Below, piece by piece: positions 2-54,583 of a stretch of DNA of 64,000 nt; the stretch's first letter is position 1; the number at the start of each line of letters is the position of its first letter. The stretch comes from an uncultured Gammaproteobacteria bacterium. GTDB lineage: Bacteria; Patescibacteriota; Microgenomatia; UBA12405. The notes beneath the pieces are model-generated. The model saw nothing but the letters and a program-made list of their open reading frames with translations. It searched no databases and was not told where the DNA came from. A program made the position numbers and the translations under genes. The stretch lies in assembly GCA_964503465.1 (NCBI GenBank), contig CAZCYZ010000001.1, forward strand, positions 129,702-193,701. The letters run 5' to 3'.

Positions 2-217
2 CCCACTGGAACTCCCCAACCTACAAATACTCCAACTAACACTCCAATTCCAACTAACACTCCCACAAATCAGCCAACTTCAACCCCAATGCCAATCGTT
101 GAAGGCCCTAGTCCGACCAGGATTGTTCTCCCCAACGCTGGTATTAGTTTCCCTGGATCCAGTATGGTACTTTTTGGATCTATTGTGACCTTGCTTGGAT
201 TCTTGGTATTATTGTAG
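2..217 (+). CDS. C-terminal end of a Pro/Thr-rich secreted protein (5' part outside window) ending in an LPNAG sortase-type sorting signal plus hydrophobic tail
   Basis: The frame is open from the window edge to TAG at 215-217. It is absent from the ORF track because no start lies in the window. Own translation: PTGTPQPTNTPTNTPIPTNTPTNQPTSTPMPIVEGPSPTRIVLPNAGISFPGSSMVLFGSIVTLLGFLVLL. Confidence 0.55.
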   Translation, partial: PTGTPQPTNTPTNTPIPTNTPTNQPTSTPMPIVEGPSPTRIVLPNAGISFPGSSMVLFGSIVTLLGFLVLL

Positions 218-220
218 GTC

Positions 221-1132
221 ATGAAAATTATTGCTCTAATCGAGGCCCTACGCCCATTTCAGTGGATAAAAAATCTTAATCTATTTGCTGCTGCTATTCT
301 TAATGGCAAGCTCTTTGATCCACCAGTTTTTATTCAAAGTCTTATTGGTTTCTTGGTTTTTTCAGCACTATCATCTTCGTCATATTTGATCAATGATCTT
401 GTTGATATGGAACGGGACAAACTCCATCCCTTCAAGAAATTTCGTCCTTTAGCCAGGGGTGACGTTTCTCCAATTCAAGCAATCATTGTTTCATTTGGGT
501 TATTTTGTTTTGCCATTTTGGCTTCTCTTTATGTTAGTTTTGGTTTTTTCGTTCTTTCCCTTATTTTTATTATCATGCAATATTCTTATTCATTCGTATT
601 TAAACGTCGAGCCATTTTAGATATCATTGGCATTTCTCTCTTTTTTATCATTCGGGCTTTTGCTGGTGAAATTGCCACTGGTTACCATCTTCCTGTCTGG
701 ACTATGCTAACGGTTATTTTTCTCTCTCTTTTTATTGCCAGTGGTAAGCGTCGAAGTGAGCTGGTTAGAAGTGGCGTTAAAACTAGACAAGCACTCCAGG
801 GTTACGGTAAAAGTCTCCTTAACTTTTACACCACCATGTTTGCCGTCTGTACTTTGGTTACTTATGCTATGTACACTTTCTTTGCTGAACCTATTAGGTT
901 CCAGGGAATAATTCATCATTTCCTGTTAGATAATTTTCCTGCTGCCCTGGATCGTAAGTGGTATATGGTCACGTTGTTGCCGGTAATATTTGGCATCATG
1001 CGTTATGGCCAAATAATTTTTGAAATGGAAGAAGGGGAGAGGCCCGAACGTGTCGTTACCACCGATATTCCCCTGTTGATGTCAGTTCTTACTTGGGGGC
1101 TAATGATGATCACCATTATTTATGTTCTCTAG
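221..1132 (+). CDS. UbiA-superfamily prenyltransferase, decaprenyl-phosphate 5-phosphoribosyltransferase-like (Rv3806c-type)
   Basis: 303-aa polytopic protein. It has N-terminal LRPFQWIKN and the Asp-rich motif NDLVDMERDKLHPFKKFRPLARG, typical of UbiA enzymes. Both closely resemble the DPPR-synthase branch. The superfamily call is firm; the substrate call is inference. Confidence 0.8.
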   Translation: MKIIALIEALRPFQWIKNLNLFAAAILNGKLFDPPVFIQSLIGFLVFSALSSSSYLINDLVDMERDKLHPFKKFRPLARGDVSPIQAIIVSFGLFCFAILASLYVSFGFFVLSLIFIIMQYSYSFVFKRRAILDIIGISLFFIIRAFAGEIATGYHLPVWTMLTVIFLSLFIASGKRRSELVRSGVKTRQALQGYGKSLLNFYTTMFAVCTLVTYAMYTFFAEPIRFQGIIHHFLLDNFPAALDRKWYMVTLLPVIFGIMRYGQIIFEMEEGERPERVVTTDIPLLMSVLTWGLMMITIIYVL

Positions 1133-2648
1133 TATCGTTCTCTTTCTGTTAACCCTATTTACTCGTTTTTTTGGATTTAATTGGGGTAATGGTTTTTTCT
1201 TCCACCCAGACGAAAATAACATGGCCACAGCTATTACCCAGCTGTCTTGGCAAAACCTTAATCCTCACTTTTTTGCCTATGGCCAATTTCCGCTATATCT
1301 TGGTTATTTTTCCCTCAAAACACTTGGACTTGCCAACACCTTTTTCAATTCTGTTTATATTCTCCGTTTTTGGTCAGCTGTCTTTTCCTGTTTCTCTATT
1401 TTGTTTTTTTACCACATTTGTAGATCAAAAATTTTTACCTTGCTATTGGTCTTTACCCCGGGATTAATTCAGTTAGCTCATTTTGGAACCACTGAAAGTC
1501 TGTTGATCTTTGTCTTTGCTGTCAATCTCTATTTGAGCCAACTTATTATTCGCAGCCCCAAACCAAAATATTTTTTTTTGGCCTCTGTTGTTACCGGAAT
1601 CGGTCTGGCTACCAAAATCTCTGCAATTATATTTATTACTCCCGTTCTTCTGGCGACTCTGTTTAACAAAGATAAAAACAAGCTCCACCTCCTATTGTTT
1701 ACTATCTACTGTTTACTGTTCACCTTTCTCTTCTTTATTATTTTCTCTCCATATAACCTAATTGCTCATGCTGACTTCCTCTCATCTCTTCACTACGAGA
1801 CTCAAGTTGCCACTGGCAAATTACCAGTTTTCTACACTAATCAATTTCTTCACACCTCCCCATATTTTTTTCAATTGACCAAGATATTCCCCTACATTGC
1901 TGGTCTTCCGATGTTTATTTTCAGTTCCATAAGTTTTTGTCTTATTCTTAAGTCATATTTCATAGATCGCAAATCATTTAACAACTTAACTATCGTTTTA
2001 CTTTCTTGCCTAGTTTATTTTTTATATTTTGGCCAGGTCTATACCAAATGGACCCGTTTCATGTCCCCCATCTTTTTCATTTTTCCGTTCCTGACGACCG
2101 TCTTATTAGAAAAAATAAATAATATAAATAAAAAAAATATTTTTATTACTTATCTAAATAAGTTTATTATAGTTTTGTCAATTATTCCCGGCATTATGTT
2201 TATGAAGATCTATTTTCAACCCGATGTTCGTCTTATTGCCAGTCGATGGATGGTTCAAGCCATTCCTGCTAATTCGAAAATCCTCTCTGAAGCCGGTAAT
2301 GTAATCAATCTTCCTATAACTGACTTGCCCGCCGCAACCGACCATCAATTACAAGTCACCAATTTTGATTTCTACAACCTTGATACCAATACCAACCTTC
2401 AACCAAAATTGACTGACCAGATTGGTCAGTCTGATTACATTATCATCCCTTCTCGTCGAATTTTTAAAAATCAAAATAATTCCAATTTTCCTGTCTCTCA
2501 ACAATATTACCAACAGTTATTTTCCGGCCAACTCGGTTTTAGTCAAATTAAACAATTTTCTGTTTTTAATGACGAAAACGCCGAGGAAACCTGGTCAGTC
2601 TTCGATCACCCTGTAGTTAGAATTTTCCAAAGAAATTACTACGATTAA
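1122..2648 (+). CDS. polytopic membrane protein, GT-C fold glycosyltransferase-like (family 39/ArnT/PMT-like)
   Basis: 508 aa with more than 10 hydrophobic segments. An acidic motif FFFHPDENNM follows TM1, the position of the GT-C catalytic loop. It is a paralog of 4363-6063, sharing the HPDE motif, YGxFPLYL, ATKISA and a C-terminal FDHPxxxIF. Its start overlaps the upstream stop by 11 nt. Confidence 0.65.
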   Translation: MFSSIVLFLLTLFTRFFGFNWGNGFFFHPDENNMATAITQLSWQNLNPHFFAYGQFPLYLGYFSLKTLGLANTFFNSVYILRFWSAVFSCFSILFFYHICRSKIFTLLLVFTPGLIQLAHFGTTESLLIFVFAVNLYLSQLIIRSPKPKYFFLASVVTGIGLATKISAIIFITPVLLATLFNKDKNKLHLLLFTIYCLLFTFLFFIIFSPYNLIAHADFLSSLHYETQVATGKLPVFYTNQFLHTSPYFFQLTKIFPYIAGLPMFIFSSISFCLILKSYFIDRKSFNNLTIVLLSCLVYFLYFGQVYTKWTRFMSPIFFIFPFLTTVLLEKINNINKKNIFITYLNKFIIVLSIIPGIMFMKIYFQPDVRLIASRWMVQAIPANSKILSEAGNVINLPITDLPAATDHQLQVTNFDFYNLDTNTNLQPKLTDQIGQSDYIIIPSRRIFKNQNNSNFPVSQQYYQQLFSGQLGFSQIKQFSVFNDENAEETWSVFDHPVVRIFQRNYYD

Positions 2649-2656
2649 TTCACCCT

Positions 2657-4366
2657 ATGGTTAAACTAATTCACCAATTTCCACTGACGATTATTGGTGT
2701 CATTCTCTCTATCGTCTCCTTTGCCATCTCTTCTCCTACGCTTGGGTTAAACCAACTAGCTTTTTGCTATTTTCTGTTGTCAATATTACTGATCTTTTTT
2801 GATTATGTTCGAGCGCATGTCACCATTCGGCAGTTGTCAATACCAACTCGGTTGTTTTGGTTCGTCCTTGCCCTAGCTTTTGTATCCAGACTCTCTTTAC
2901 TTACCAGTTACCCTTTTGTTTCAGTTGGTGACCAGCTTCGTGATGGTGGTCTAGACGCCCAAAAAATTGTCAACCAGGAAATTTCAAATCTTTTCGAGTC
3001 TGGAGCTTACAATGCTCATGGACTAATCATTCCCTGGTTCTCCAGTTTGTTCTATCTCTTTATCGGTCCCTCAGTTCTAGTTTATCGAATTCCTGCTGCT
3101 CTTATTTCAATTCTTGACATTATTGCTATTTTTATTTTTGTCAAGTCAATTAAAGGTACCTGGTCAGCATTCTTTAGTAGTCTTGTCTTAATAGTCCTCC
3201 CCCTCCATCTTTTTTACGGCCGGACTGAATTAGTTGTTATTTTTAGTAGTCTGATGGCCACACTCACCCTTTTCACCGTCTATCATTTCTTTGCTCGGCC
3301 AGGTTATCCACTTTACATTCTCTTGGGATTAATAATTGGTTTCTCCTGGAATTTTCATGGCGGAGTCAAGGCCTTCACTATTCTTGTTGCTATTTTTGTG
3401 GTAACCAGAGACCTAATAACCATCGTTACTAAATTGTTATCTAAACAGTCAATTAAAAGTAATCTAATTGGGTTAACTCTATTGGCTGGTTTTCTTATCA
3501 TTGGCTTTGGGCCCAAAATTATTTTTACTAACCAACAGGGATTTGTCCATGCCTCTCGCTTTAACTCCAATAATCTAAGTTTAAATACTCTCACTAATAA
3601 TTATCTTAAGTCCCTTATGGTTTATTTTTATGAGCCAACCAATAGTTGGTATCCTGACCATCAGCCCATTTTGGTACCAATATTTGCCCTGTTCTTCCTC
3701 CTTGGCATCGGCAAAATCATCTTTCTTTCCAAAAATATTTTTGATTGGTTTCTGATATATCTGATTTCTTTAACCCCTTTTACTAACAGTACTATTACCG
3801 ACATCCTCAATGCCGACCACCGCCTGGTTCCTCTACTCCCCGTAATAGTTATCATTATTGGGATAGGAATTGATTATATTCTTGATTCCATTAGTACTAC
3901 TTCTCTCAAGCGTATTTCTACTATTACCCTGTCACTTTACATAATACTAGTCGGGATTCATTTTTTTATCAAGCGACCTGCCGACATTAATGACTATGTC
4001 AATCAAAAACAGGACCTAAAGGATTACCTGTCAATGCATCTTATTTATTTTCTTCGGTCCCAACCTTCGTTTACTATCTCCCCGAACCTTTGCATTTCTG
4101 CACCACCAGCTAACTATCCGAACTATATCTTGACCCACTACCAAGAGCAATATCAGTATTTTTTTCCTCACACGGTGGTCGGAGTAGAAGAAAATCCCAC
4201 TCTTACTGATAGTGAAATAATGATTACTCCTTCCGCTTGTTCATCATTATCCCCCAGTCCAAAAGACTATCAAATTTCCCAAATAGACTGTTCCAGGGAT
4301 AATTTTTTCACTTGTCCGCACGACTATTTAGGTAAAATGAAAATTTATTACCCTTTGTCATTATGA
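2657..4366 (+). CDS. polytopic membrane protein, probable GT-C glycosyltransferase (ArnT/PMT-like)
   Basis: 569 aa with many TM segments and a large C-terminal non-membrane domain. It lies between two clearer GT-C paralogs. Its stop overlaps the next start (ATGA). Confidence 0.5.
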   Translation: MVKLIHQFPLTIIGVILSIVSFAISSPTLGLNQLAFCYFLLSILLIFFDYVRAHVTIRQLSIPTRLFWFVLALAFVSRLSLLTSYPFVSVGDQLRDGGLDAQKIVNQEISNLFESGAYNAHGLIIPWFSSLFYLFIGPSVLVYRIPAALISILDIIAIFIFVKSIKGTWSAFFSSLVLIVLPLHLFYGRTELVVIFSSLMATLTLFTVYHFFARPGYPLYILLGLIIGFSWNFHGGVKAFTILVAIFVVTRDLITIVTKLLSKQSIKSNLIGLTLLAGFLIIGFGPKIIFTNQQGFVHASRFNSNNLSLNTLTNNYLKSLMVYFYEPTNSWYPDHQPILVPIFALFFLLGIGKIIFLSKNIFDWFLIYLISLTPFTNSTITDILNADHRLVPLLPVIVIIIGIGIDYILDSISTTSLKRISTITLSLYIILVGIHFFIKRPADINDYVNQKQDLKDYLSMHLIYFLRSQPSFTISPNLCISAPPANYPNYILTHYQEQYQYFFPHTVVGVEENPTLTDSEIMITPSACSSLSPSPKDYQISQIDCSRDNFFTCPHDYLGKMKIYYPLSL

Positions 4367-6063
4367 AAAAATTATCCAAAAATTATTTGACGACTATATT
4401 CATTTTCTTCGTGGTGTTGCTAGTCAGATTCTACGGCCTTAATTGGGACCAAGGTTATCATCTCCACCCAGACGAAAGAATGATATCTATGGTAGTTGAT
4501 AAAATTAAACTACCCCAAAGCTCAAACATTGGTCAAATATTTTCCCCCGATTCTAGTCTCAACCCGAAATTTTTTGCCTACGGTTCATTCCCCATCTACC
4601 TACTCAAAACGGTCTCTTCCATTTTTCCCTCCAATTCCCCCTACTCCCAGTATCAAGCCAATAATCTACTTGGTCGGGGCCTGTCAGCTATAGCCGATTC
4701 GGTTTCGGTCGTTCTAATCTACAAAATAGGGCAATTACTTTTCACTTCCCAAGTTGGTATTTTAGCCTCTTTAATTTATGGTTTTGCCGTTCTTCCATTC
4801 CAACTATCGCACTTTTACGCCGTCGACACTCTTTTAAATTGTTTTATTTTATTTACCATTTATCAACTTTGCCAACTCTACCTTCATCGTCGTCCTCTTA
4901 ATGCAATCTTGACCGGTATAGCATTTGGGCTATCTTTAGCTACCAAAATCAGTGCTACTGTTCTACTGGCATCTATTGGAGCCACCTTCTTAGTTGAGTT
5001 TTTACTCTACCTTGTCAAAAAAAATCCCAAACCATCACTCACCTCACTCCAAAATAACACTCTTCTCTTGCTACTAGTATTTCTCGTCACCTTTACCACT
5101 TTCTTCATTTGTCAGCCATTTGCTTTTTTTGACTTTCCAACCTTTTGGAACCAAATTAATGAACAAAAAGCCATGACTCGAAACGCTTTTGTTTTTCCCT
5201 ATACTCTTCAATACGTCTTTACCCCCCCATATGTTTATCAGCTTAAAAATATTTTCTTATGGGGATTTGGACCCATAGCCACAATTTTTGGGCTGTTAGG
5301 ATTTGTTCTCTCTTTAATTAAACTAATTAAAAATCTTTTTATTCCTGGCAATGACACCAAAGAGGGACTACTCCTAATAGTTTTTACCTTTTGCCTTGGC
5401 TATTTTCTTGTTGTTGGCTCCTTTGCGATTAAATTTGTGCGTTACTGTCTTCCGCTTTATCCATTTTTAGCTATCTTTGCCGCTTGGACTATTTTTTCTG
5501 CCCCATCAATTATTATTAAGAAAATCCTTCTAGTAATACTCATGCTATTTCAGCTTAGCTGGTTTTTGGCCTTTACCCATATTTACTCTCTCCCCAACAC
5601 CCGAGTCGAAGCCAGTAATTGGATTAACCAAAATATTCCCAAAGGTAGTCTTATCCTTCGAGAACATTGGGACGATGGTTTACCGCTTTTTGATTCCAGG
5701 CAATTTCGATATCAAGATCTAGCTCTTTACGACTCCGATCTTAATCCCAACAAATGGGCCCAAATTCAATCACAGCTAACTCAAGCCAATTATCTTATAG
5801 TTGCTAGTAATCGTCTTTATACTCCTCTTTTAAAGTTAACAAATTGTGAAGTTCTCCCGCCAGGAAAATGTTACCGCCAAACTGCTCAATACTACCAAGA
5901 TCTTTTTTCAGGTAAGCTGGGTTATCAACTAGTTGCTGAATTTGCTAGATTCCCAAGTTTTCTTGGAGTTGATATAAATGATCAATCAGCCGACGAATCC
6001 TTTACCGTCTACGACCACCCCAAAATAATGATTTTTAGGAACACTCAACAATCACATGAATAA
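4363..6063 (+). CDS. polytopic membrane protein, GT-C fold glycosyltransferase-like (paralog of 1122-2648)
   Basis: 566 aa. It has the motif YHLHPDERMI after TM1, then FAYGSFPIYL and LATKISAT, and a C-terminal YDHPKIMIFRN that parallels the 1122-2648 protein. Confidence 0.65.
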   Translation: MKKLSKNYLTTIFIFFVVLLVRFYGLNWDQGYHLHPDERMISMVVDKIKLPQSSNIGQIFSPDSSLNPKFFAYGSFPIYLLKTVSSIFPSNSPYSQYQANNLLGRGLSAIADSVSVVLIYKIGQLLFTSQVGILASLIYGFAVLPFQLSHFYAVDTLLNCFILFTIYQLCQLYLHRRPLNAILTGIAFGLSLATKISATVLLASIGATFLVEFLLYLVKKNPKPSLTSLQNNTLLLLLVFLVTFTTFFICQPFAFFDFPTFWNQINEQKAMTRNAFVFPYTLQYVFTPPYVYQLKNIFLWGFGPIATIFGLLGFVLSLIKLIKNLFIPGNDTKEGLLLIVFTFCLGYFLVVGSFAIKFVRYCLPLYPFLAIFAAWTIFSAPSIIIKKILLVILMLFQLSWFLAFTHIYSLPNTRVEASNWINQNIPKGSLILREHWDDGLPLFDSRQFRYQDLALYDSDLNPNKWAQIQSQLTQANYLIVASNRLYTPLLKLTNCEVLPPGKCYRQTAQYYQDLFSGKLGYQLVAEFARFPSFLGVDINDQSADESFTVYDHPKIMIFRNTQQSHE

Positions 6064-7111
6064 CAATATCTATATTCAACCAATTTCTCCTTCCACTGTT
6101 ATTTCTGACTATCAAAAGCTTCTTGCCAAGCTTCCTAAACCACAAAACACCCCAACCGTCATTAAATTGAATCTATCATGGACTAAGTTTTATCCAGCTG
6201 TTTCAACTCCACCTTGGCACTTTGATGCCATTCTAAAGTGGCTGATTGATTCCGGAGTTTCCCCCTCAAATATTATTCCAGTTGAGAACCGTACTGTTGT
6301 CACTAAGGTCGAAATTGGTGCCCGAAATCATGGTTGGACCAAAATTGCCAAAAAATACGACGTTAAGCTTCACTACCTCACCAAAGAAAAATACATTGAA
6401 TACCGTCCCAAGTCAAAAATGTTAGTTCTTGACCAAATTTTCCCTGACGGAATTCTTCTCCCGGAAGTAATAATGGATAAACCCCTTATTACTCTGTGCA
6501 CACTTAAGTCTCACGTGTTTACCACCATCACCGGTGCTATCAAAAATTATTTTGGCATGCTTAATACCAATCGTCATTTTTGTCATCGCCGTATTCACCA
6601 AACTATCATTGATCTTCTTCAGATCCAGCGGGAACTCCATCCCCAAATCTTTGCCGTGATGGATGGTAGTGTTCTTGGTTTTGGGCCTGGCCCTAGGGCC
6701 ATGGAGTGGGAGCCAGCCAACCTTGCCCTGGCCAGTTGCGATGAAGTTGCTCTTGATGCCACTGCCGCCAGAATCATTGGTTTTGATCCCAGTCAAATAG
6801 AATTCATCAAGTTAGGGCACAAAATGAAACTGGGCAATATGAACCCTACCTATTCACATTCCTTGCCAAATTTTCACCACTCCGTTCGCAAAGATACTTT
6901 CGCCTCCCGCGGGCAAAAATTTATTTATCACCATCTCCCTGAATGGTTTGAAAAACTAATTCTTCGAAGCCCTATTGCTCCTTGGTCATACGCCGCCTCA
7001 AACCTTTACCATGATGGTTACTGGTACAATTTTGTTGGCAAAAATCGATTGAGTGCTTATCTTCGGTCTGATTGGGGCAAACTGTTTAAAAATTACGTTC
7101 CTCGTGATTAG
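6056..7111 (+). CDS. DUF362-like protein (function unknown)
   Basis: 351-aa soluble protein. The N-terminal pattern TVIKLNLSW...PPWHFDAILKWLIDSG and its overall layout resemble DUF362. This was recognised by eye only. It overlaps the upstream gene by 8 nt. Confidence 0.55.
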   Translation: MNNNIYIQPISPSTVISDYQKLLAKLPKPQNTPTVIKLNLSWTKFYPAVSTPPWHFDAILKWLIDSGVSPSNIIPVENRTVVTKVEIGARNHGWTKIAKKYDVKLHYLTKEKYIEYRPKSKMLVLDQIFPDGILLPEVIMDKPLITLCTLKSHVFTTITGAIKNYFGMLNTNRHFCHRRIHQTIIDLLQIQRELHPQIFAVMDGSVLGFGPGPRAMEWEPANLALASCDEVALDATAARIIGFDPSQIEFIKLGHKMKLGNMNPTYSHSLPNFHHSVRKDTFASRGQKFIYHHLPEWFEKLILRSPIAPWSYAASNLYHDGYWYNFVGKNRLSAYLRSDWGKLFKNYVPRD

Positions 7112-7670
7112 GAAGTTACTATTCTGGCAGCCTTCCATCGATTGTTATCGTCTACTTTCCCAACATCGTTACGGCCAATCCTTCTTAGTGGCCACCAACT
7201 ATTTAATTTGGTTTTTCCTTTTCTTTGTTTCTTATTTGCTAATAAAGCAAAATACCAACGTTTTTTGGCAACTGCTCCTGGCCACCATTACTAGTGAAGT
7301 CATTGAGAAAATAGTTAAAGTCAAAAACCTATGGAAAAGACCAGCTTTTGCCAATGGTAACCAGATCCCTAATGGTTTTATTAAGTCCTGGTACCTCAAG
7401 GGCTCTTTTCCTTCTGGTCATACCATCAAAGCCGTTTTCTTTCTGTTGTTCATCCTTCAATATTCAGTCATATCCCCATTTGTCTATTTGGCTGTCGTTG
7501 TTCCCTTGTTATTAATCAGGGTTATTTGTGGTTTTCATTATCCCGTTGACATTCTTGGTGGGGGTATAATTGGTGGTTTAATTTGGGTCATGTTCAATCA
7601 CATTTACGCCCCCGAATGGCTAAATCAGATTATTTCCCAAATTTTTAATTTCGTTTTTTTTATCAAATAG
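7053..7670 (+). CDS. PAP2-family lipid phosphatase (start uncertain; a GTG at 7104 would avoid most of the overlap with the upstream gene)
   Basis: It carries the PAP2 signature motifs KxxxxRP-like (LWKRPAF), SFPSGHT and FHYPVDILGG, plus several TM helices. Confidence 0.8.
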   Translation: MLIFGLIGANCLKITFLVIRKLLFWQPSIDCYRLLSQHRYGQSFLVATNYLIWFFLFFVSYLLIKQNTNVFWQLLLATITSEVIEKIVKVKNLWKRPAFANGNQIPNGFIKSWYLKGSFPSGHTIKAVFFLLFILQYSVISPFVYLAVVVPLLLIRVICGFHYPVDILGGGIIGGLIWVMFNHIYAPEWLNQIISQIFNFVFFIK

Positions 7671-7674
7671 TCTC

Positions 7675-9732
7675 TTGACTATGTTTTCTGATCTAAAGTT
7701 TATTATTCTCTGGTGGTTTGTTATTTTAACTTGCGGCCTAGCCGTACTTCCTCTTACTCTTCGCCTGTTCTCCAAATTTTGGGATCGGGGATATGTTTTC
7801 GCCAAAATTATTTCTCTAGGATTGACAACATACCTCGTTCTAGTTCTTGGAATTTTTAAAGTTCTACCCTTCACCATTCCGGTTATTCTAGCTGTGTTGA
7901 TCGTTCTAGCTGCTGCCAGTTACAAACTCAATCCCCATTTTTTTGATGATTTACAAAAGAAATATCCGATTTTCGTCATCGAAGAACTGGTCTTTTTACT
8001 AATACTCATTGCTTGGTCTTATATTCGTGGTTTTGCCCCCGATATAGAAGGTCTCGAAAAGTACATGGACTGGGGTTTTATTAATTCTATGCTCCGGACC
8101 AAGTTTCTTCCGCCCATTGACATGTGGTTTGCCAGTGAGCCCATTAATTATTATTATTTTGGCCATCTAATTTTTGCCCTGATCACCAAGCTTTCTAATA
8201 TTCCTTCGGCTATTACTTACAATCTTTCCATCGCCACCGTCTGTTCATTAACTTTCGTTTCCACTTTTTCCTTGGCCTCAAATCTTGTCTCTTCTACCCT
8301 CAAAAAGCCCCGAGTTAAAACTATTATTGTCGCCGGTCTCATCTCCGCTATTATTCTTACATTTGGTGGCAATCTCCATGCTGTTTACAAGATTATCAAA
8401 ATCAATATCAACGATAACGGTCGTTTGACGTTAACTCCCGAGGCCATTACCAAATCCGCTCATGCATATTGGTATCCCGACGCTACTCGGTTTATTGGTT
8501 TTGATCCAGACATCAAAGATAAAACTATTCATGAATTTCCTCTCTATAGCTTTGTAGTTGCCGATCTTCATGGCCACATGAACGACATTCCGGTTATCCT
8601 ATTTTTTATTGCCTTTCTGTTTTCAAGTTTCATTAGTTTTCCTAGTGTCAAAAACCTCTTTAATTGGTTTCTAATTATTCCCTCCGCCCTCACCCTTTCA
8701 ATTGCCTACATGACCAATGCCTGGGATTTTGCTGTTTACGGCCTCCTTTTTGCTATTTCTCACTTTCTTATCTACTTTCAATCTACTCGTCATAAATTAT
8801 TTGAAACTGTCATCAAAACTTTTGTCAACGGAGTTGCAGTTATCATCTTTTGGTATCTATTTACCTTGCCTTTCTCCCTCAATTTCGTTCCCATGGCCCA
8901 AGGTTTAATGCTTTCTGACTCTCGCTCACCCTTTTATCAATTGTTTATTCTTTACGGTGGTTTTTGGCTTATTTGCTTGCCTTTTTTGTTCATTTTTTTG
9001 CAAAAGAACCAAAAGTTTCAAACGGCCGACCATTTTGTCCTTGCCCTGATAATCACCGCCACCATTCTCATTATCATCCCTGAGATTGGTTATCTAAAAG
9101 ACATCTATATCTATGAACATCGTCGAGCCAACACCATGTTTAAACTCGTTTACCAGGCATTTATCATGTACTCTCTCTGTTCAGGTTATATCCTAATTCG
9201 TTTATCAAAACATTTACTCTATCGCATATTATTTGTCATTATCTTTGTCTGTCACCTTCTTTACCCCTATTTTGCCATTCGTTCTTATTATGGTTTTCGC
9301 CAATACCGAGGCCTTTGGGGTTTAAATTATCTTCAAAATCTTTATCCTGACAGCTTGGCTGCTGTTGATTGGCTCAACGCCAATGTTACTGGTCAGCCGG
9401 TAATCCTTGAAGCAGTAGGGGACAGCTACACTACTTTTAATCATGTTTCATCGGCCACTGGTCTGCCCACTATTGAAGGGTGGGTAGTTCATGAATGGCT
9501 CTGGCGTGGCGGTTACGACCAGCCCGGAGCCAGATCGGCTGAAGTCCAAAAGATATATGAATCGACCAACCTTACCGAAGTTCAACAGTTGCTTCAAAAG
9601 TATAATGTCGAATATGTTATTGTTGGTCCCAAAGAGGTTGAGAAATATAAAGACCTTAAAGAAGACAACTTACTAAACCTGGGGGCAAAAGTTGTCTTTC
9701 AAACCGGTCAAACCAAAGTTTATCGACTTTAA
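7675..9732 (+). CDS. DUF2298 / YYY-motif polytopic membrane protein (likely ATG start at 7681)
   Basis: 685 aa with more than 12 TM segments. The hallmark motif EPINYYYFGH is present, and there is a C-terminal soluble domain. The track start at 7675 is TTG; an ATG follows two codons later. Confidence 0.75.
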   Translation: MTMFSDLKFIILWWFVILTCGLAVLPLTLRLFSKFWDRGYVFAKIISLGLTTYLVLVLGIFKVLPFTIPVILAVLIVLAAASYKLNPHFFDDLQKKYPIFVIEELVFLLILIAWSYIRGFAPDIEGLEKYMDWGFINSMLRTKFLPPIDMWFASEPINYYYFGHLIFALITKLSNIPSAITYNLSIATVCSLTFVSTFSLASNLVSSTLKKPRVKTIIVAGLISAIILTFGGNLHAVYKIIKININDNGRLTLTPEAITKSAHAYWYPDATRFIGFDPDIKDKTIHEFPLYSFVVADLHGHMNDIPVILFFIAFLFSSFISFPSVKNLFNWFLIIPSALTLSIAYMTNAWDFAVYGLLFAISHFLIYFQSTRHKLFETVIKTFVNGVAVIIFWYLFTLPFSLNFVPMAQGLMLSDSRSPFYQLFILYGGFWLICLPFLFIFLQKNQKFQTADHFVLALIITATILIIIPEIGYLKDIYIYEHRRANTMFKLVYQAFIMYSLCSGYILIRLSKHLLYRILFVIIFVCHLLYPYFAIRSYYGFRQYRGLWGLNYLQNLYPDSLAAVDWLNANVTGQPVILEAVGDSYTTFNHVSSATGLPTIEGWVVHEWLWRGGYDQPGARSAEVQKIYESTNLTEVQQLLQKYNVEYVIVGPKEVEKYKDLKEDNLLNLGAKVVFQTGQTKVYRL

Positions 9733-10290
9733 ATGAAAAATAACTCTGCTCTCAAGATTCTTTTTCTCTACAACTCAATTTTCGTTTTTGCTAACAATCT
9801 TATTGGCCCACTTTTTGCTCTTTACCTTCAAGGTTTTCATTCCAGTACTGTTACTATTAGCTTTACCTGGGCAGTTTTTGTTTTCTTTACGACCATTTTT
9901 ACTTATCTTTTTTCGAAGTTTGGCGATCGAATTAAAGAACAAGAATATACCCTTATGGCCGGCTTCCTTATTCGTTCCATCGTCTGGTTTCTCTATATTT
10001 TTACTGATTCACTCTCGATGGTGGTTGTGCTTCAAGTTGTTTTGGCCTTGGGGGAAGCCTTGGGTTCTCCAAGTTTTGACACCATCTTGTCTCAACATCT
10101 CGACGATGGTAGTCAAGTAGCCGAATATTCCACCTGGCGAGTCATGGCCAATTTATCAATGGCCCTGGCCACCATCATCGGTGGTTTTGTTGTTGCCAAG
10201 TTTGGTTTTCAGGTTTTATTTGTTGTTATGTCTCTTTTGGGTCTTTTTGCTTTTTTTGGCGTGCTCTCCAAACCCCGGGAGTTGCTGTAA
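9733..10290 (+). CDS. small six-TM membrane protein resembling half of an MFS transporter
   Basis: 185 aa with six hydrophobic helices and an MFS-like loop (FSKFGDRIKEQE). The family assignment is weak. Confidence 0.4.
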   Translation: MKNNSALKILFLYNSIFVFANNLIGPLFALYLQGFHSSTVTISFTWAVFVFFTTIFTYLFSKFGDRIKEQEYTLMAGFLIRSIVWFLYIFTDSLSMVVVLQVVLALGEALGSPSFDTILSQHLDDGSQVAEYSTWRVMANLSMALATIIGGFVVAKFGFQVLFVVMSLLGLFAFFGVLSKPRELL

Positions 10291-10297
10291 ATCTCCT

Positions 10298-12190
10298 ATG
10301 TCCGATATTCTTGATGGTCTGAACCCTCAGCAAAAAGAAGCTGTGACTCACATTGGTTCACCTCTCCTTGTTCTGGCTGGTGCCGGTTCAGGTAAAACCA
10401 GAGTTTTAACCCATCGAGCGGCATATTTTGTTCACCAAAAACTTGCCAAACCATCTGAAATCTTGCTTTTAACCTTTACTAACAAGGCCGCTGGCGAAAT
10501 GAAAGACCGTATGTCCAAATTGTTAACATCAACAATTAACAAGTCGCCATCCGACAACCTGTTTGCAGGTACCTTTCATTCTTTCTGTTGTTCAGTTCTT
10601 CGTCGGCATGGATCGTATGTTGGCATCCCTCACAACTTTGTTATTTACGATACCGATGATCAGGAAAACACTATTAGTTTAATTCTCAAAGACATTGGTT
10701 TTACCCCCAAAGAATTTAAACCGAGTAGTGTTCTCTATTTTATTGAATCCGCCAAAAACAATTTCCTGACTCCCAAAGAGGCCAGGCAACAAGCTTCCGG
10801 TTTTTGGGCTGAACATGCGGCCAAAATTTATCAACTTTACCAAAACAAGTTGACTGAATTTCAGGCCCTAGACTTTAATGATCTAATTTTTAGGACTATC
10901 GAACTTTTTTATCAAAGTCCAGAAATTCTTGACAAATATCAGGATCAATATCGTTATATTTTAATTGACGAATATCAGGATACTAATCAAACCCAGTACC
11001 TGTTAACCAAACTCTTATCGCTTAAACATCATCAAATTACTGTTGTTGGTGATGCGTCCCAGGCTATTTACGGCTGGCGTGGCGCCGATTATCACAACCT
11101 TGACAGCTTTCTTCGCGATTTTAACGATACCAAGGTTGTTAATCTTGAGGAAAATTATCGTTCGACTCAAACCATCTTGGATGCCGCCAATTCGGTTATC
11201 TCCAAAAATAATTCTCATCCTATTCTTAAACTTTTCACTCTCAAACAATCGAACGATAAGATTAAAATTTTTGAGGCCGAATCCGAAATTGCCGAGGCCG
11301 ATTATCTTTCCGATCGAATTAATTTTTTGGTCAACACCCATCGCATTCCTCATCGGGCTATTGCCGTCCTTTATCGAATGAATGCCCAATCGCGTGTTAT
11401 CGAAGAGTCCTTTCTAAAAAACAACATTCCCTACGTTCTAATTGGTGGCCTTCGTTTTTATGAGCGGGCCGAAATCAAAGATATTCTCGCCATGGTTCGT
11501 TTCGCTGTTAATCATCAAGACCAGGTATCGTATGGCCGACTCACTAAAACATTTGGTAAAAAACGATTGTTTAGTTTTGAAAACTACTTAAAGGATGTCG
11601 ACTTGTCTGACCTTTCCTCGCTTCAAATTCTCGAGTCGTTAGTCCTTAATTCCGGTTACCTTGACCGTTTCGATCCAAAAGATGATGACGATCAACGTCG
11701 AATCGAAAACATTAAGGAACTCAAGTCCGTTGCTACTTCCTTTCCCAAGATTAACGACTTTTTAGAAAACATTGCCTTGGTTCAAGCCGAATATAGTCAG
11801 CAGGAAAAATCCAAGAGAAAGGAAAAGCGCGACGGCATCAGGCTGATGACTCTTCACAGCAGTAAAGGATTAGAGTTTGAAGCGGTTTTTTTGGTCGGTT
11901 TTGAAGAGGGGATATTGCCCCATTCACGAAGCATGGTCGACGATTCCGATATCGAAGAAGAAAGGCGCCTTTGTTATGTTGGTATCACTCGGGCCAAAGA
12001 TTATCTTCACCTCTCCTATGCTTCCCGTCGTCTCTATTTTGGCCGCTCATCATTAAACGAACCTTCCCGTTTCCTGGCCGATATTCCAAACAACTTAATC
12101 GAATTTGACCAGGTTGCTAATATTACTCGAGACTATCGCCATCGTCAGGATTCTGGTGACGATCTTACTTATGATCCAGATATATACTAA
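10298..12190 (+). CDS. pcrA: UvrD/PcrA-type SF1 DNA helicase
   Basis: Motifs seen: LNPQQKEAV, Walker A AGAGSGKTRVLTHR, ILIDEYQDTN, VGDASQAIYGWRGA, NYRST and TLHSSKGLEFEAVFL. The ATG at 10298 fits family N-termini. The track start at 10181 is an in-frame extension across the upstream gene. Confidence 0.92.
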   Translation: MSDILDGLNPQQKEAVTHIGSPLLVLAGAGSGKTRVLTHRAAYFVHQKLAKPSEILLLTFTNKAAGEMKDRMSKLLTSTINKSPSDNLFAGTFHSFCCSVLRRHGSYVGIPHNFVIYDTDDQENTISLILKDIGFTPKEFKPSSVLYFIESAKNNFLTPKEARQQASGFWAEHAAKIYQLYQNKLTEFQALDFNDLIFRTIELFYQSPEILDKYQDQYRYILIDEYQDTNQTQYLLTKLLSLKHHQITVVGDASQAIYGWRGADYHNLDSFLRDFNDTKVVNLEENYRSTQTILDAANSVISKNNSHPILKLFTLKQSNDKIKIFEAESEIAEADYLSDRINFLVNTHRIPHRAIAVLYRMNAQSRVIEESFLKNNIPYVLIGGLRFYERAEIKDILAMVRFAVNHQDQVSYGRLTKTFGKKRLFSFENYLKDVDLSDLSSLQILESLVLNSGYLDRFDPKDDDDQRRIENIKELKSVATSFPKINDFLENIALVQAEYSQQEKSKRKEKRDGIRLMTLHSSKGLEFEAVFLVGFEEGILPHSRSMVDDSDIEEERRLCYVGITRAKDYLHLSYASRRLYFGRSSLNEPSRFLADIPNNLIEFDQVANITRDYRHRQDSGDDLTYDPDIY

Positions 12191-13569: not shown

Positions 13570-14967
13570 ATGAGTGACTTAAACAGACTAACTCTGGTGG
13601 AAGCCCGCCAAGGTTTATTATCAAAAAAGTTTTCTTCTCGTGAACTGATTACTGATTGCTTTTCTCAAATTAAAAAAGTTGAACCTCAATTAAACGCTTT
13701 TGTTTCATTATTCGAAGAAGAATCATTAACCAAAGCCGATAATATCGATCTGTCAAAACCATTGGCTGGTATTCCTGTGGCTGTCAAAGACAATTTTTTG
13801 GTCAAGGACCATCGCACCACCGCTTCAGCCAAGGTCCTTGATAGTTACACTGCTCAATATTCTTCCACTTTTACTCAGCGTCTTGAAGATGCTGGGGCCA
13901 TCATCATCGGTAAAACCAACATGGATGCTTGGGCTCACGGCTCATCTACCGAAACTTCCGATTATGGCCCGACCAAAAATCCTTGGAATACCAATCATCT
14001 ACCCGGCGGTTCCAGTGGTGGCAGTGCTGCAGCCGTTGCTGCTGATGAGTGTACTGTTGCTGTTGGTTCCGAAACTGCCGGCTCGATTCGTCAACCAGCT
14101 GCCTGGTGCGGGGTGGTTGGCTTCAAACCCACCTATGGTCGTTGTTCTCGTTACGGCACTATCGCTATGAAATCCAGCACCGATTCACCTGGACCAATTG
14201 CCAAGACAGTTGACGATGCCGCTTATATCCTTTCGCTTGTTTCTGGTTACGATCCCCACGATGCCACTAGTATCGAAGAAGGCCCGTGGTTAATCCCGCC
14301 ACCTTTAACTTCACTTAAGAATATTAAAATTGGCCTTCCTCTGTCGTATTTTCCTCCGCAAATTCAGCCAGATGTAAAACAGGCAGTTTTAAATTCCACT
14401 GAAATTTTCAAAAAACTAGGTGCTGAAATTGTTGAGCTCCCTGACGTTCTAGATCCCAAATATTCGGTTGCCATCTATACCATTCTTCAACGTTCCGAGG
14501 TTAGTAGCAACCTATCTCGATTTGATGGCATTCGCTACGGTAATGATCGCTCATTTTTTTCCCAAGAGGCCAAACGCCGGATTATGCTTGGAACTTATTC
14601 TCTTTCCGCTGGATATTACGATGCCTATTACACCAAAGCTCAAAAAGCCAGAACCCTCCTCTGTCAGGATTTTGACAAACAGTTTGCCAAAGTTGATGTC
14701 ATTATTGGTCCTACCTCTCCTAGTACTGCTCTGCCTCTTAAGGCCACCGAAGGTCAGGCTATGTTTGGTGAACTCCAAGACATGTTCTTGGAACCATCAA
14801 GTATTGCCGGTCTGGCTGGTATTTCCATTCCTTGTGGTTTTGACACTAACAATCTTCCCATTGGTCTTACTATCGTTGCTCCCCAAAAGCGCGAAGATAT
14901 TGTCTATCAACTGGCCAAAACCTTCGAATCCAACACCGATTATCATCTCCAAAAACCTAAACTATGA
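13570..14967 (+). CDS. gatA: Glu-tRNA(Gln)/Asp-tRNA(Asn) amidotransferase subunit A
   Basis: Amidase signature GGSSGGSAAAVAA, plus PVAVKDNF and GKTNMDAWAHGSSTE. Length is 465 aa. Confidence 0.95.
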   Translation: MSDLNRLTLVEARQGLLSKKFSSRELITDCFSQIKKVEPQLNAFVSLFEEESLTKADNIDLSKPLAGIPVAVKDNFLVKDHRTTASAKVLDSYTAQYSSTFTQRLEDAGAIIIGKTNMDAWAHGSSTETSDYGPTKNPWNTNHLPGGSSGGSAAAVAADECTVAVGSETAGSIRQPAAWCGVVGFKPTYGRCSRYGTIAMKSSTDSPGPIAKTVDDAAYILSLVSGYDPHDATSIEEGPWLIPPPLTSLKNIKIGLPLSYFPPQIQPDVKQAVLNSTEIFKKLGAEIVELPDVLDPKYSVAIYTILQRSEVSSNLSRFDGIRYGNDRSFFSQEAKRRIMLGTYSLSAGYYDAYYTKAQKARTLLCQDFDKQFAKVDVIIGPTSPSTALPLKATEGQAMFGELQDMFLEPSSIAGLAGISIPCGFDTNNLPIGLTIVAPQKREDIVYQLAKTFESNTDYHLQKPKL

Positions 14968-15872
14968 TTACCAGACTTGACTCCACCACTCTTGCCAAAA
15001 TCACTACTCAGGCCGATATGGACGAATTTGTTAATTCCCTTGGTCTGACGACTAATACCGTTATCATTAAGCCCAATTGGGTTGATGGTTGTCTTGGTAC
15101 TCATACCGAAGCAAAAGTTCTTGACCTGTTTTTAGGATCATTAAAAAATAAAAAAATTTATCTTGTCGAAAGTTACACTTTTTGGCGCAATCAAAAATCA
15201 ACCGAAGAAGGGGAGGATTCTTTTTCTTCTTCCGAAGCTCAATTTGATACTGGCCAAAAACATTGGGATTTTTTCAAAGCCGGTGACGACTGGTTTCTAA
15301 GAAACAGTGGTATCGGTAAAGTTATTGGGAAATATGGAATCACCTACATTAATGTCACCAATGAACTTTGGGCTGGCCGGGAATCACCCATCCCTCTGGT
15401 TCCCCAAGTTCTTTACGATCTTCAGGGTTCTGACTTTATTAGTTTTGCCAAACTAAAGGGTGATGGTGATTATGGCGCCACCCTATCTATCAAAAATCTT
15501 TTTGGCCTTTACCCAGACCCGCATCGAATGAAAAAATATCATGGGGAAAATGATGAATTGATAAAAGATTCAATTCTAAAGATTAATCAAACCTATCGGC
15601 CTCTCTTTAAACACTTTTCCATTGTCGAAGGTGTCTATTTTGCCAGTTATGTCCACTGGTCCAAACACATTCATCAAGTATCCCAAGATTTGGGTATTAT
15701 TATTGGTGGTCAAGACGCCCTCCAAGTTGACGACACCGCTCTTAAAATGACCCAAACTCAACCATCCGGATCTCTCAAAACACTTCTGGTTGACTATCAA
15801 AAACTTTTTGGTGGTAACTTCCAGTCTCAAAGTATCCCTTCCGATTACCATGTTGAGTTGTTCAAACTATGA
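14964..15872 (+). CDS. DUF362-like protein inserted between gatA and gatB
   Basis: 302 aa. The N-terminal VIIKPNWVDG...THTEAKVLDLFLGSL...KIYLVES pattern resembles DUF362 and the 6056-7111 protein. ATGA overlaps occur at both ends. Confidence 0.45.
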   Translation: MITRLDSTTLAKITTQADMDEFVNSLGLTTNTVIIKPNWVDGCLGTHTEAKVLDLFLGSLKNKKIYLVESYTFWRNQKSTEEGEDSFSSSEAQFDTGQKHWDFFKAGDDWFLRNSGIGKVIGKYGITYINVTNELWAGRESPIPLVPQVLYDLQGSDFISFAKLKGDGDYGATLSIKNLFGLYPDPHRMKKYHGENDELIKDSILKINQTYRPLFKHFSIVEGVYFASYVHWSKHIHQVSQDLGIIIGGQDALQVDDTALKMTQTQPSGSLKTLLVDYQKLFGGNFQSQSIPSDYHVELFKL

Positions 15873-16159
15873 AAGTCGTTCAATGGTCAATGACTGTTTC
15901 AAACAATTTACATCAAGAATTTATTGAATATTCCCAAAACGTATTAAAACCCACCTGGTTCAAGTTTGGTGCCATCGATTATCGACTTTTTGAAGGAGAA
16001 AATAAGTTTATAGAACAGCTATTCTTCCCAGAAGATTTCAATCCCGAAGAGTTCTTTGCCAAAGTTAAATCCGATCCAAAGGCCAACGAAGTTTCCAAAA
16101 GTTATGAACAACACTTTCAGGCCACCAACATTCAAAAGGAGGTACTAAATCAACTATGA
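15869..16159 (+). CDS. hypothetical 96-aa protein inserted between gatA and gatB
   Basis: The ORF has 4-nt ATGA overlaps with both neighbours, suggesting translational coupling. I recognised no motif. Confidence 0.5.
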   Translation: MKVVQWSMTVSNNLHQEFIEYSQNVLKPTWFKFGAIDYRLFEGENKFIEQLFFPEDFNPEEFFAKVKSDPKANEVSKSYEQHFQATNIQKEVLNQL

Positions 16160-53861: not shown

Positions 53862-54583
53862 CCTATATTTACGTCAAAAAAACACCACCACCTATTCGTC
53901 CCCAGCCTAGACTAAATCCGCCAACCCGTCGTATTCTTGCTTTGGTTCTTTTGTTGGCCGGTTTGGCTTTTTTAACCTCGGCCATTTTTCCCATCGTCCA
54001 GTTTCAATTAGCTTACGCCAATCGTTTCCGGGAAGTCATCAATCCGCTTTCAAGTCGCTTTTATAACCGTCAAGACAATGTTTTAGGAGATGTTGATTAT
54101 ACCCAACTTAATAACTGGTTTATTTCCAATTCAAACAACTCTACCCCGGGGACTTTAGCTTCTTCTCCATCCAACACCTACTACATTTCTATTCCCAAGC
54201 TCAACATTGATTCGGCCACTGTCGAGGTTGGCAGTCTCGATCTCAAACACAGTCTCATTCAATATCCTCAAACCGCTCTTCCGGGTCAATTTGGTAATTC
54301 AGTTATTTTTGGTCACTCCGTTTTGCCGCAGTTTTTTAACCCCAAATCATATTTAACTATTTTTTCCACTCTCTATCGTCTCAAGCAAGGTGATGAAATT
54401 TTTGTTGATTTTGATCAGATTCGTTATAAATTCTTAGTCGAAGAAATGTATGAAGTCCAACCAACCGACCTTTCAGTTCTCGAACAACGTTTTGATGGCC
54501 GTTATCTTACCCTCATCACTTGTAGTCCGCCCGGTACCTACCTCCGCCGCCTGATCGTTAAAACTCGCATTGTCGACATTTAA
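53858..54583 (+). CDS. sortase-family transpeptidase
   Basis: N-terminal TM anchor, the catalytic His in VIFGHSV, the catalytic Cys motif LTLITCSPPG, and the Arg in LRRLIVKTR. Confidence 0.85.
   Translation: MTYIYVKKTPPPIRPQPRLNPPTRRILALVLLLAGLAFLTSAIFPIVQFQLAYANRFREVINPLSSRFYNRQDNVLGDVDYTQLNNWFISNSNNSTPGTLASSPSNTYYISIPKLNIDSATVEVGSLDLKHSLIQYPQTALPGQFGNSVIFGHSVLPQFFNPKSYLTIFSTLYRLKQGDEIFVDFDQIRYKFLVEEMYEVQPTDLSVLEQRFDGRYLTLITCSPPGTYLRRLIVKTRIVDI

Follow-up and report, generated by a model that had tools for sequence, protein, structure and literature searches.

A probable polyprenyl-phosphate pentofuranose glycosylation locus with a species-variable module in Candidatus Shapirobacteria

A gene cluster located at positions 221-9732 of a 64,000-nt stretch of DNA (contig CAZCYZ010000001.1; the whole stretch is referred to below as the window) was analyzed together with its relatives; its homologs assign the source organism to Candidatus Shapirobacteria (Patescibacteria, or candidate phyla radiation, CPR). 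The cluster comprises genes for a UbiA-family protein, three polytopic membrane proteins (GTC1, GTC2 and GTC3), a DUF362 protein, a PAP2 phosphatase and a DUF2298 protein. It probably represents the Shapirobacteria version of a polyprenyl-phosphate pentofuranose glycosylation pathway, in which GT-C transferases act outside the cytoplasm and a module of genes varies among species.

In mycobacteria, a pathway of this type yields decaprenyl-phospho-arabinose (DPA) and involves the UbiA-family enzyme Rv3806c, the PAP2 protein Rv3807c, DprE1/DprE2 and the GT-C enzymes Aft and Emb. A preliminary description of the window had proposed a lipid-linked pentofuranose donor pathway with GT-C consumers, and this proposal was supported: the clade of the UbiA-family protein, the GT-C character of the polytopic proteins and the synteny in related genomes were each checked, and none of the three spoke against it. 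Pfam and NCBIfam profile searches also bore out the protein families named there, including the DUF362, PAP2 (SFPSGHT, HYPVD) and YYY/DUF2298 genes, and all quoted motifs were found in the proteins encoded within 221-9732.

The UbiA-family protein and the phosphoribosyl transfer step

The UbiA-family protein carries the motifs LRPFQWIKN and NDLVDMERDKLHPFKKFRPLARG and matches PF01040 with 84.8 bits (E 7e-24). Its top NCBIfam matches were three models of decaprenylphosphoryl-5-phosphoribose synthase (DPPRS): NF008978 (197.7 bits), NF008977 (175.2 bits) and NF008976 (158.9 bits). A UbiA model came fourth (151.8 bits), matched through its C-terminal half, and the models for heme O synthase (CyoE), 4-hydroxybenzoate prenyltransferase, chlorophyll synthase (ChlG) and archaeal lipid (GGGP) enzymes reached no more than 46 bits. 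A more distant ortholog, from a related locus designated L084, scored 203 bits against the DPPRS model. When the PDB was searched, the protein matched Rv3806c of Mycobacterium tuberculosis (8j8j) with E 7e-36 over 220 aligned residues, compared to E 6e-7 for an archaeal UbiA protein.

The residues of Rv3806c that contact Mg, ribose, the 5-phosphate and pyrophosphate are R22, K28, Y70, N73, D77, K87, R90, Q135, Y138, K143 and Y157 (PMC10994848), and the phosphoribose sites (including K28, Y70 and Q135) are not conserved in ordinary UbiA enzymes (PMC10994848). In a HMMER alignment these contacts map, respectively, to R11, K17, Y55, N58, D62, K72, R75, Q120, Y123, K128 and F142 of the protein studied here. 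Thus, 10 of the 11 positions contacting phosphoribosyl pyrophosphate (PRPP) or Mg are identical; the exception is Y157, replaced by F142, a Tyr-to-Phe change that also occurs at this position in some mycobacteria (PMC10994848). All eleven positions were invariant across 20 UbiA orthologs. With the DPPRS models in the lead and the PRPP contacts kept, the protein belongs with the Rv3806c branch and not with the quinone, heme or chlorophyll prenyltransferases, as had been suggested from its motifs. It very probably uses PRPP and polyprenyl phosphate, and this is the best-supported step of the pathway.

GT-C proteins encoded by the locus

GTC1 and GTC3 scored above the PMT_2 cutoff of 26.1 bits (29.2 and 39.2 bits, respectively), and GTC2 was placed just below it (25 bits). 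The former two are clear paralogs (hhalign probability 100), with GTC2 more distant from both (81-93). The acidic first-loop motif HPDE, reported before in two paralogs, was confirmed after the first helix of GTC1 (FFFHPDENN) and GTC3 (HLHPDERM) and is missing from GTC2. In GTC3, HLHPDER follows the first transmembrane helix and the N-terminus (MKKLSKN) is predicted to be inside. An alignment of 46 GTC1/GTC3 orthologs and paralogs revealed that P29-D30-E31, located after the first helix, are invariant, and we take this Asp-Glu pair in the first outer loop to resemble the DE motif of the PMT family.

Pfam searches with the same 46 proteins gave matches to PMT_2 (37/46) and PMT (29/46), and the few remaining matches were also to GT-C families. 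With regard to Emb/Aft-type enzymes, Pfam Arabinose_trans was not matched, and GT87 was touched weakly by only 3/46 members. A PDB profile search with GTC1/GTC3 had yeast Pmt2 as its top match (E 0.005), followed by ArnT; a direct PDB search with the single GTC3 sequence gave nothing useful. A distinct C-terminal extracytoplasmic domain was noted in GTC1. These profile matches identify GTC1 and GTC3 as predicted PMT/ArnT-like GT-C glycosyltransferases. GTC2, whose orthologs were found in few relatives (e.g., L031, L043, L047, L069 and L098), may be a more distant PMT_2-like accessory protein.

The DUF2298 protein, which carries INYYYFGH, matches PF10060 (E 4e-96) and TIGR03662 (493 bits). An hhalign comparison with GTC1-3 revealed no relationship (probability 0.3-24), and a direct PDB sequence search gave nothing useful. 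The structure model of the protein matched GT-C enzymes only: STT3A, DPY19, yeast STT3, AglB and AftA were among the Foldseek top 10, and STT3A, yeast STT3 and AglB were the best full-length matches. Identity to the STT3/AglB-type and AftA structural neighbours is about 10%. The C-terminal globular domain of the model superposes on AglB-S2. Residue D35, in the loop that follows helix 1, does not vary among DUF2298 orthologs, and a conserved HEWLWRGGY segment is modelled at low confidence. Since no sequence relationship to GTC1-3 was found, it is from the structure model that DUF2298 is predicted to be a glycosyltransferase of the GT-C fold, with a C-terminal domain resembling that of AglB/STT3.

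Given the profile matches of GTC1 and GTC3 and the Foldseek result for DUF2298, the earlier count of four GT-C-like proteins stands, although not evenly: the assignment is strongest for DUF2298 (from the model) and for GTC1 and GTC3 (from profiles), and weakest for GTC2. In the literature searched, DUF2298 was mentioned only in passing and no function was given for it. Some DUF2298 orthologs, namely P0219, P0228 and P0234 (770 aa), have an added LysM domain (PF01476), a hint that they work at or near the peptidoglycan.

Conservation of the locus and its exchangeable module

Related loci were collected in two scans: (i) a UbiA-seeded scan with one genome per species, in which a UbiA ortholog was detected in 93 species and 80 loci were fetched, all of them Shapirobacteria-like, and (ii) a DUF2298-seeded metagenome scan, which supplied 80 further loci. 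Both returned Shapirobacteria-like close relatives only, because the conserved patterns chosen were lineage-specific. Among the UbiA-seeded loci with at least 9.5 kb of downstream sequence (n=50), DUF2298, GTC1 and GTC3 were each present in 49, and PAP2 in 48. Of 30 DUF2298-seeded loci extending at least 9.5 kb upstream, 28 had all four partners. The synteny expected from the preliminary description was thus borne out in relatives (49/50 and 28/30 loci, respectively). The conserved order is UbiA-GTC1-GTC3-(cassette of 0 to 5.6 kb)-PAP2-DUF2298-UvrD-FemAB, and two species have minimal loci (L051 and L077) consisting of UbiA-PAP2-DUF2298 only. The metagenome-assembled genomes containing L005, L008, L011, L015 and many other UbiA-seeded loci are labelled 'uncultured Gammaproteobacteria', 'Candidatus Methanoperedens' or 'Parcubacteria'; these loci are 65-73% identical to, and collinear with, those of Shapirobacteria, which suggests that the taxon names are erroneous or were set by default.

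The cassette genes include an opposite-strand GT4, a PF01370 NAD-dependent epimerase of the short-chain dehydrogenase/reductase (SDR) type, FkbM or class I methyltransferases, extra PMT_2 proteins and DUF362. A census of 100 complete loci distinguished (i) GT4 alone (27 loci), (ii) GT4 with a methyltransferase and/or GTC2 (22 loci), (iii) no cassette (14 loci), (iv) one methyltransferase alone (12 loci), (v) SDR epimerase alone (10 loci), (vi) DUF362 alone (8 loci), (vii) SDR epimerase with GT4, in some cases also with a methyltransferase or GTC2 (6 loci), and (viii) GTC2 with a methyltransferase (1 locus). The presence of GT4, epimerase and methyltransferase genes inside the locus counts in favor of the proposed glycosylation pathway.

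Loci bearing DUF362 are scattered on the UbiA tree. Their GTC3 proteins share 63% identity within the group versus 50% with the others (permutation p<0.0005), whereas UbiA, GTC1, PAP2 and DUF2298 do not group by the DUF362 cassette. The methyltransferase and GT4 cassette types likewise covary with GTC3 and not with the frame genes. The locus is therefore best described as a constant frame (UbiA, GTC1, PAP2 and DUF2298) combined with an exchangeable module (GTC3 and the cassette), and we propose that this module makes the glycan vary among species. The covariation could, instead of reflecting function, come from physical linkage in recombination. It is nevertheless a stronger signal than the mutual exclusion of DUF362 and the SDR epimerase, which has no statistical weight by itself (about 1.3 co-occurrences expected).

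In the distant lineage represented by L084, whose UbiA protein is 55% identical, the UbiA-GTC1-GTC3 genes are located between an FAD amine-oxidase-like gene and the genes for a polyprenyl synthetase and undecaprenyl-diphosphate synthase (UppS), and this lipid link also counts for the proposed pathway. The latter two genes lie directly after UbiA-GTC1-GTC3 (14355-16899 of L084), the polyprenyl synthetase gene on the minus strand, and the encoded UppS is long (429 aa), with the Prenyltransf domain covering residues 24-242 only. FAD amine-oxidase-like genes occur beside UbiA, GT-C or DUF2298 genes in several distant lineages (L084 8664-9968, L086 2841-4136 and L166 6946-8163), and in L086 such a gene takes the place of UbiA. 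The L084 copy matches the NCBIfam 'hypothetical protein' model NF005560 over cutoff (326.8 bits), and the copies in L086 and L166 match Pfam Amino_oxidase only.

Organization and neighborhood of the locus

The co-directional run was confirmed, and each feature of the preliminary description was found at its given position. The interval 221-9732 contains seven complete genes (Table 1), not nine as claimed; the higher number requires the partial open reading frame (ORF) upstream and the half-size major facilitator superfamily (MFS) gene downstream to be included. The six junctions within the run measure -11, +8, -4, -8, -8 and +10 nt, the first being the overlap of the UbiA and GTC1 genes. The half-size MFS gene abuts DUF2298 at 0 nt, and the close spacing carries on into UvrD (+7 nt) and FemAB (+3 nt). 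As these unrelated genes are equally tightly packed, packing alone does not define an operon and is a trait of the compact genome. The UvrD gene (10298-12190, +) follows DUF2298 in almost every related locus. A second UvrD-family helicase gene is located at 18824-21928 (+); its product (1034 aa, with a C-terminal PD-(D/E)XK nuclease domain) is AddA-like. Every 2-kb bin of the window (1-64000) has a negative GC skew (cumulative -5.03), despite nearly all genes being on the + strand.

Table 1. Genes of the locus and its immediate neighbours (positions in the window).
Feature	Position	Strand	Product and profile
Pro/Thr-rich surface protein, C-terminal end (partial ORF)	2-217	+	LPNAG then hydrophobic segment
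UbiA-family protein	221-1132	+	303 aa; PF01040
GTC1, polytopic	1122-2648	+	508 aa; PMT_2
GTC2, polytopic	2657-4366	+	569 aa; PMT_2-like, sub-cutoff
GTC3, polytopic	4363-6063	+	566 aa; PMT_2
DUF362 protein	6056-7111	+	351 aa; PF04015; soluble cassette gene
PAP2 phosphatase	7104-7670 (ORF from 7053)	+	188 aa; PF01569
DUF2298 / Chlor_Arch_YYY	7681-9732 (ORF from 7675)	+	683 aa; PF10060, TIGR03662
Half-size MFS protein (N-terminal six helices)	9733-10290	+	185 aa; MFS_1 profile positions 1-166 of 347

In 76/76 related loci the upstream neighbour of UbiA encodes a protein of 216-610 aa with a Pro/Thr/Ser-rich stretch (0.53-0.9 per 40-aa window). Its sortase-type tail takes one of two forms, LPxxG ('RIVLPxxG...LILL') or PxTG ('PSTSSGxPxTG...KK'), and Pfam Big_13 was recorded in the relatives' proteins. 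Two acceptors had been guessed for the pathway. The Pro/Thr-rich LPNAG protein (2-217) is a reasonable candidate because of this constant adjacency, as an acceptor and not a pathway enzyme. For the second, a giant protein encoded at 22963-27366 (+), no link to the locus was found; this secreted protein of 1467 aa has a signal-like N-terminus, matches CarboxypepD_reg and fn3, and is Pro/Thr-rich at its C-terminus, and no sorting motif was detected in it. Genes similar to PilN/PilO and a MurJ gene are located upstream in relatives, and an LCP gene was found in one related locus, L086. These neighbours fit either O-glycosylation of a Pro/Thr-rich stalk or a wall-linked polymer.

With regard to flippases, relatives carry a MurJ/MatE-like gene five genes upstream, and a half-size MFS gene directly 3' of DUF2298 was found in 4/108 loci under a strict census (e.g., L112, L114 and L145) and in a few more metagenome loci. 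The half-size MFS protein appears to be accessory and is a weak flippase candidate.

Two further regions of the window were noted. An SDR epimerase/reductase gene (21880-22845, -) is divergent to that of the giant protein, with GDP-L-fucose synthase and GalE models as its best matches, all sub-cutoff; it was considered as an out-of-locus epimerase, but with 25% identity over 179 residues it was not accepted as an ortholog of the SDR in the cassettes. The segment 51819-54583 (+) encodes a 680-aa protein without a Pfam match and, behind it and overlapping its gene, a sortase (53858-54583); no LPxTG-like motif was found in the 680-aa protein.

The proposed pathway

The PAP2 protein matches PF01569 (E 1e-13), and its three motifs, KxxxxxxRP (KVKNLWKRP), SFPSGHT and HYPVD, are all conserved in 59 orthologs. 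In almost all loci its gene directly precedes that of DUF2298. By analogy, it is proposed to encode a 5-phosphate phosphatase similar to Rv3807c or, alternatively, a phosphatase recycling polyprenyl diphosphate.

In the pathway that we consider probable, the UbiA-like enzyme would transfer 5-phosphoribose from PRPP to polyprenyl phosphate at the cytoplasmic face, yielding polyprenyl-P-ribose-5-P, as supported by its family placement and conserved contacts. PAP2, acting like Rv3807c, would strip the 5-phosphate to give polyprenyl-P-ribofuranose. In some species the sugar may then be altered by a cassette enzyme, which would be the LarA-fold DUF362 protein in the locus described here and an SDR epimerase elsewhere. 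A flippase, to which no gene is assigned, would bring the donor to the outer face, where GTC1, GTC3 and DUF2298, with GTC2 as an accessory, could pass the sugar to surface acceptors. Candidate acceptors are the Pro/Thr-rich stalk of the sortase-type protein encoded beside UbiA and/or a peptidoglycan-associated polymer. All four GT-C proteins would draw on the product of UbiA.

Several observations weigh against this pathway, which was deduced here from genes, profile comparisons and predicted structures. The UbiA-family protein scores just below the curated equivalog cutoff of NF008978 (197.7 vs 207 bits). A search of the window ORFs that have at least 150 aa and lie before position 56138 turned up no PRPP synthase, and the conserved frame has no MATE or SMR/GtrA flippase. 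NCBIfam matches of PAP2 were weak, with undecaprenyl-diphosphatases the closest, and analysis of its hydropathy and of the positive-inside rule gave no clear membrane orientation. PMT/ArnT-type GT-C enzymes normally take hexose or 4-amino-4-deoxy-L-arabinose (Ara4N) donors; a pentofuranose donor for GTC1 and GTC3 is suggested by the gene context. Gene order in the lineage is kept well beyond the locus, into UvrD and FemAB, so that synteny alone is weak evidence of coupling. Finally, L086 contains GT-C, DUF362 and DUF2298 genes, but no UbiA gene within 17 kb (~8 kb on each side of DUF362).

Alternative interpretations

The far-reaching synteny and the locus L086, with no UbiA gene nearby, would also be seen if the GT-C enzymes were independent of UbiA. 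GTC1 and GTC3 would then be PMT-type O-glycosyltransferases acting on the Pro/Thr-rich neighbour with polyprenyl-P-hexose made elsewhere, UbiA and PAP2 would have a different task, and general envelope-gene order would account for the clustering. This agrees with the nearest families (PMT_2 and PMT) and structures (yeast Pmt2 and ArnT) of the two proteins, as well as with the constant presence of the Pro/Thr-rich sortase-type protein beside UbiA. However, a search of the recurrent genes from UbiA to DUF2298 brought up no GT2-type synthase of polyprenyl-P-hexose (singleton ORFs and flanks were not all profiled), the UbiA gene runs 11 nt into GTC1 at this locus and lies next to it in 49/50 loci, and GT-C enzymes are known partners of DPPRS-type enzymes (PMC11127046). 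We consider this interpretation unlikely.

Improbable to the same degree is a role of DUF2298 as an STT3/AglB-type oligosaccharyltransferase that moves a lipid-diphosphate glycan en bloc, with PAP2 recycling polyprenyl diphosphate on the outer face. The best full-length structural matches of DUF2298 are of this type, PAP2 sticks to DUF2298 and not to UbiA in nearly all loci, and its closest, albeit weak, NCBIfam matches are undecaprenyl-diphosphatases. Moreover, the GT4 present in 55/100 cassettes could assemble a lipid-linked oligosaccharide. Nevertheless, neither an initiating phosphoglycosyltransferase nor a Wzx-type flippase was detected among the recurrent genes between UbiA and DUF2298, and UbiA, PAP2 and DUF2298 stay together even in the minimal loci. 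The HEWLWRGGY segment, a doubtful counterpart of the WWDYG motif, falls in a low-confidence region of the model.

The third alternative is a variant of the proposed pentofuranose pathway and concerns the identity of the sugar. In the preliminary description ribose had been favored since no DprE1/DprE2 was visible. Neither was indeed found in the set of window ORFs that was searched for PRPP synthase, nor in the cassettes, but the ribose assignment is uncertain because the DUF362 protein has an epimerase-type fold and fills the slot of the SDR epimerase present in 16 related loci. The protein (PF04015, E 6e-26) was modelled with the fold of LarA, a racemase/epimerase, with about 220 of 351 residues aligned and the C-terminal domain of LarA unmatched. 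This fits the common Pfam clan of DUF362 and LarA (DUF2088) (PMC11770544). In LarA, a nickel-pincer cofactor, made by LarB, LarC and LarE, is held by R75, K184 and H200, and the catalytic residues are H108 and H174. The invariant residues of DUF362 (H153-x9-K163, H174 and H177) are candidates only for LarA equivalents, and the H153-x9-K163 spacing equals that of H174-x9-K184 in LarA. On the basis of the modelled fold, DUF362 is proposed as a modifier of the lipid-linked sugar.

Accordingly, the donor here might be an epimer (arabino- or xylofuranose) formed from polyprenyl-P-ribose by DUF362, which would replace DprE1/DprE2 or the SDR epimerase. DUF362 sits where 16 other loci have the PF01370 epimerase, on the same strand, and the two never occur together; loci with DUF362 have a distinct GTC3 subtype despite being scattered on the UbiA tree, and epimerases occupy such a slot in published systems (PMC11127046). 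On the other hand, PDB searches with the DUF362 sequence and with its profile gave no sequence-level match to LarA, and none of the LarB, LarC and LarE genes needed for the LarA cofactor was seen here. The known substrates of LarA are 2-hydroxy acids, not lipid-linked sugars. In addition, the absence of co-occurrence with the SDR is not statistically meaningful, as stated above, and a second DUF362 paralog is found in an unrelated context. We regard an epimerized donor as doubtful, and less likely than either of the preceding interpretations. Hardly more can be said for the wider proposal that DUF2298 is a new GT-C family using polyprenyl-phosphate pentofuranose and hard-wired to PAP2, and that DUF362 is a single-protein, LarA-fold lipid-ribose epimerase replacing DprE1/DprE2 or the SDR. 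The second DUF362 gene (14964-15872, +; 302 aa, PF04015 47.8 bits) is highly divergent in sequence and lies between gatA (13570-14967) and gatB (16156-17553); its product had no significant BLASTP similarity to the DUF362 protein of the locus and no NCBIfam match.

Although source annotations of some orthologs read '4-hydroxybenzoate polyprenyltransferase', the UbiA-family protein is very improbable as an aromatic or heme prenyltransferase of the usual MenA, UbiA or CyoE type, because these families reach 15-46 bits where the DPPRS models reach 159-198 bits, and the phosphoribose-specific residues are kept.

Comparison with known glycosylation systems

The locus shares with the mycobacterial DPA pathway (i) a UbiA-fold phosphoribosyltransferase with common PRPP contacts, (ii) a PAP2 gene in the cluster, (iii) several presumed GT-C consumers, and (iv) AftA among the best structural matches of DUF2298. 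It differs in that DprE1/DprE2 are missing from the window ORFs profiled, the GT-C proteins are PMT_2-like/DUF2298 and not Emb/Aft, the CPR organism has no mycolate envelope, and the cassette is species-variable.

A three-component pathway has been described in Citrobacter youngae, consisting of the synthase ORF15, the MATE flippase ORF14 and the GT136 GT-C enzyme ORF12, with the optional SDR epimerase ORF13 (Kelly et al. 2024, PMC11127046). It was shown experimentally that pentofuranoses are added outside the cytoplasm in this pathway, which is described as widespread, and that the SDR epimerase switches ribose to xylose (PMC11127046). A PRPP-dependent polyprenyl-P-ribofuranose synthase (predicted for the locus) combined with a GT-C transferase, an optional SDR epimerase (16/100 related loci) and a glycan diversified by the gain and loss of modifying genes are features in common with the locus analyzed here. 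In contrast, PAP2 of the locus is separate and not a fused HAD domain, no MATE flippase is present in the frame, there are three to four GT-C genes, apparently from other families, and the LarA-fold DUF362 occupies the epimerase slot. The locus is also near-universal in its lineage, whereas the three-component systems are serotype-specific add-ons.

Pilin O-arabinosylation in Pseudomonas aeruginosa employs a DPPRS ortholog and a GT-C transferase, as far as the system is presented in the citing paper (PMC11127046). On that account, a lipid-linked pentofuranose O-glycosylates a surface protein, and relatives of the locus have PilN/PilO-like genes and the Pro/Thr-rich protein upstream; unlike in P. 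aeruginosa, no pilin acceptor gene was identified at the locus and no DprE1/DprE2 homologs were seen, so that the link to pili is one of neighbourhood only.

GTC1 and GTC3 resemble PMT (GT39) and ArnT (GT83) in their PMT_2 and PMT matches and in having Pmt2 and ArnT as best PDB profile matches, but the scores are low (PDB E 0.005 at best), their C-terminal domain is distinct, and the context implies pentofuranose in place of mannose or Ara4N. The DUF2298 model, with a GT-C membrane domain and a C-terminal globular domain superposing on AglB-S2, resembles STT3/AglB/PglB, but the identity is about 10%, neither WWDYG nor DxD was demonstrated in it, and genes for lipid-diphosphate oligosaccharide assembly were not found in the frame. 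DUF362 and LarA have the Pfam clan and the H-x9-K spacing in common, and differ in the incomplete alignment, the lack of a sequence-level match and the cofactor genes, which were not seen here.

A literature search found no paper linking the pathway to CPR bacteria. The earlier statement that such a system is uncharacterised in reduced-genome bacteria holds to this extent, but the general pathway has been published as widespread (PMC11127046). What is new is the lineage (CPR) and the gene set; the principle of the pathway is known from mycobacteria and from Kelly et al. 2024 (PMC11127046).

Implications for CPR biology

The envelopes of CPR/Patescibacteria are chemically almost uncharacterised. 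Surface glycans are likely to be important for attachment and phage defence in CPR cells, since these live attached to hosts. At least 93 species-level genomes in a lineage with reduced genomes have kept this cluster, which suggests a core function in the envelope. That function would rest on the PRPP-to-lipid chemistry already used as a drug target in tuberculosis. The locus also provides a testable context for two families, DUF2298 (GT-C with an oligosaccharyltransferase-like domain) and DUF362 (LarA fold), and its constant frame and variable module offer natural variants for studying the donor and acceptor specificity of GT-C enzymes and for pentofuranose glycoengineering. If the roles considered for DUF2298 and DUF362 are true, then, together with the exchangeable GTC3 subtype, they would provide Shapirobacteria with a coat of pentofuranose that differs among species in the manner of serotypes and is borne by a sortase-anchored Pro/Thr-rich protein or by the cell wall.

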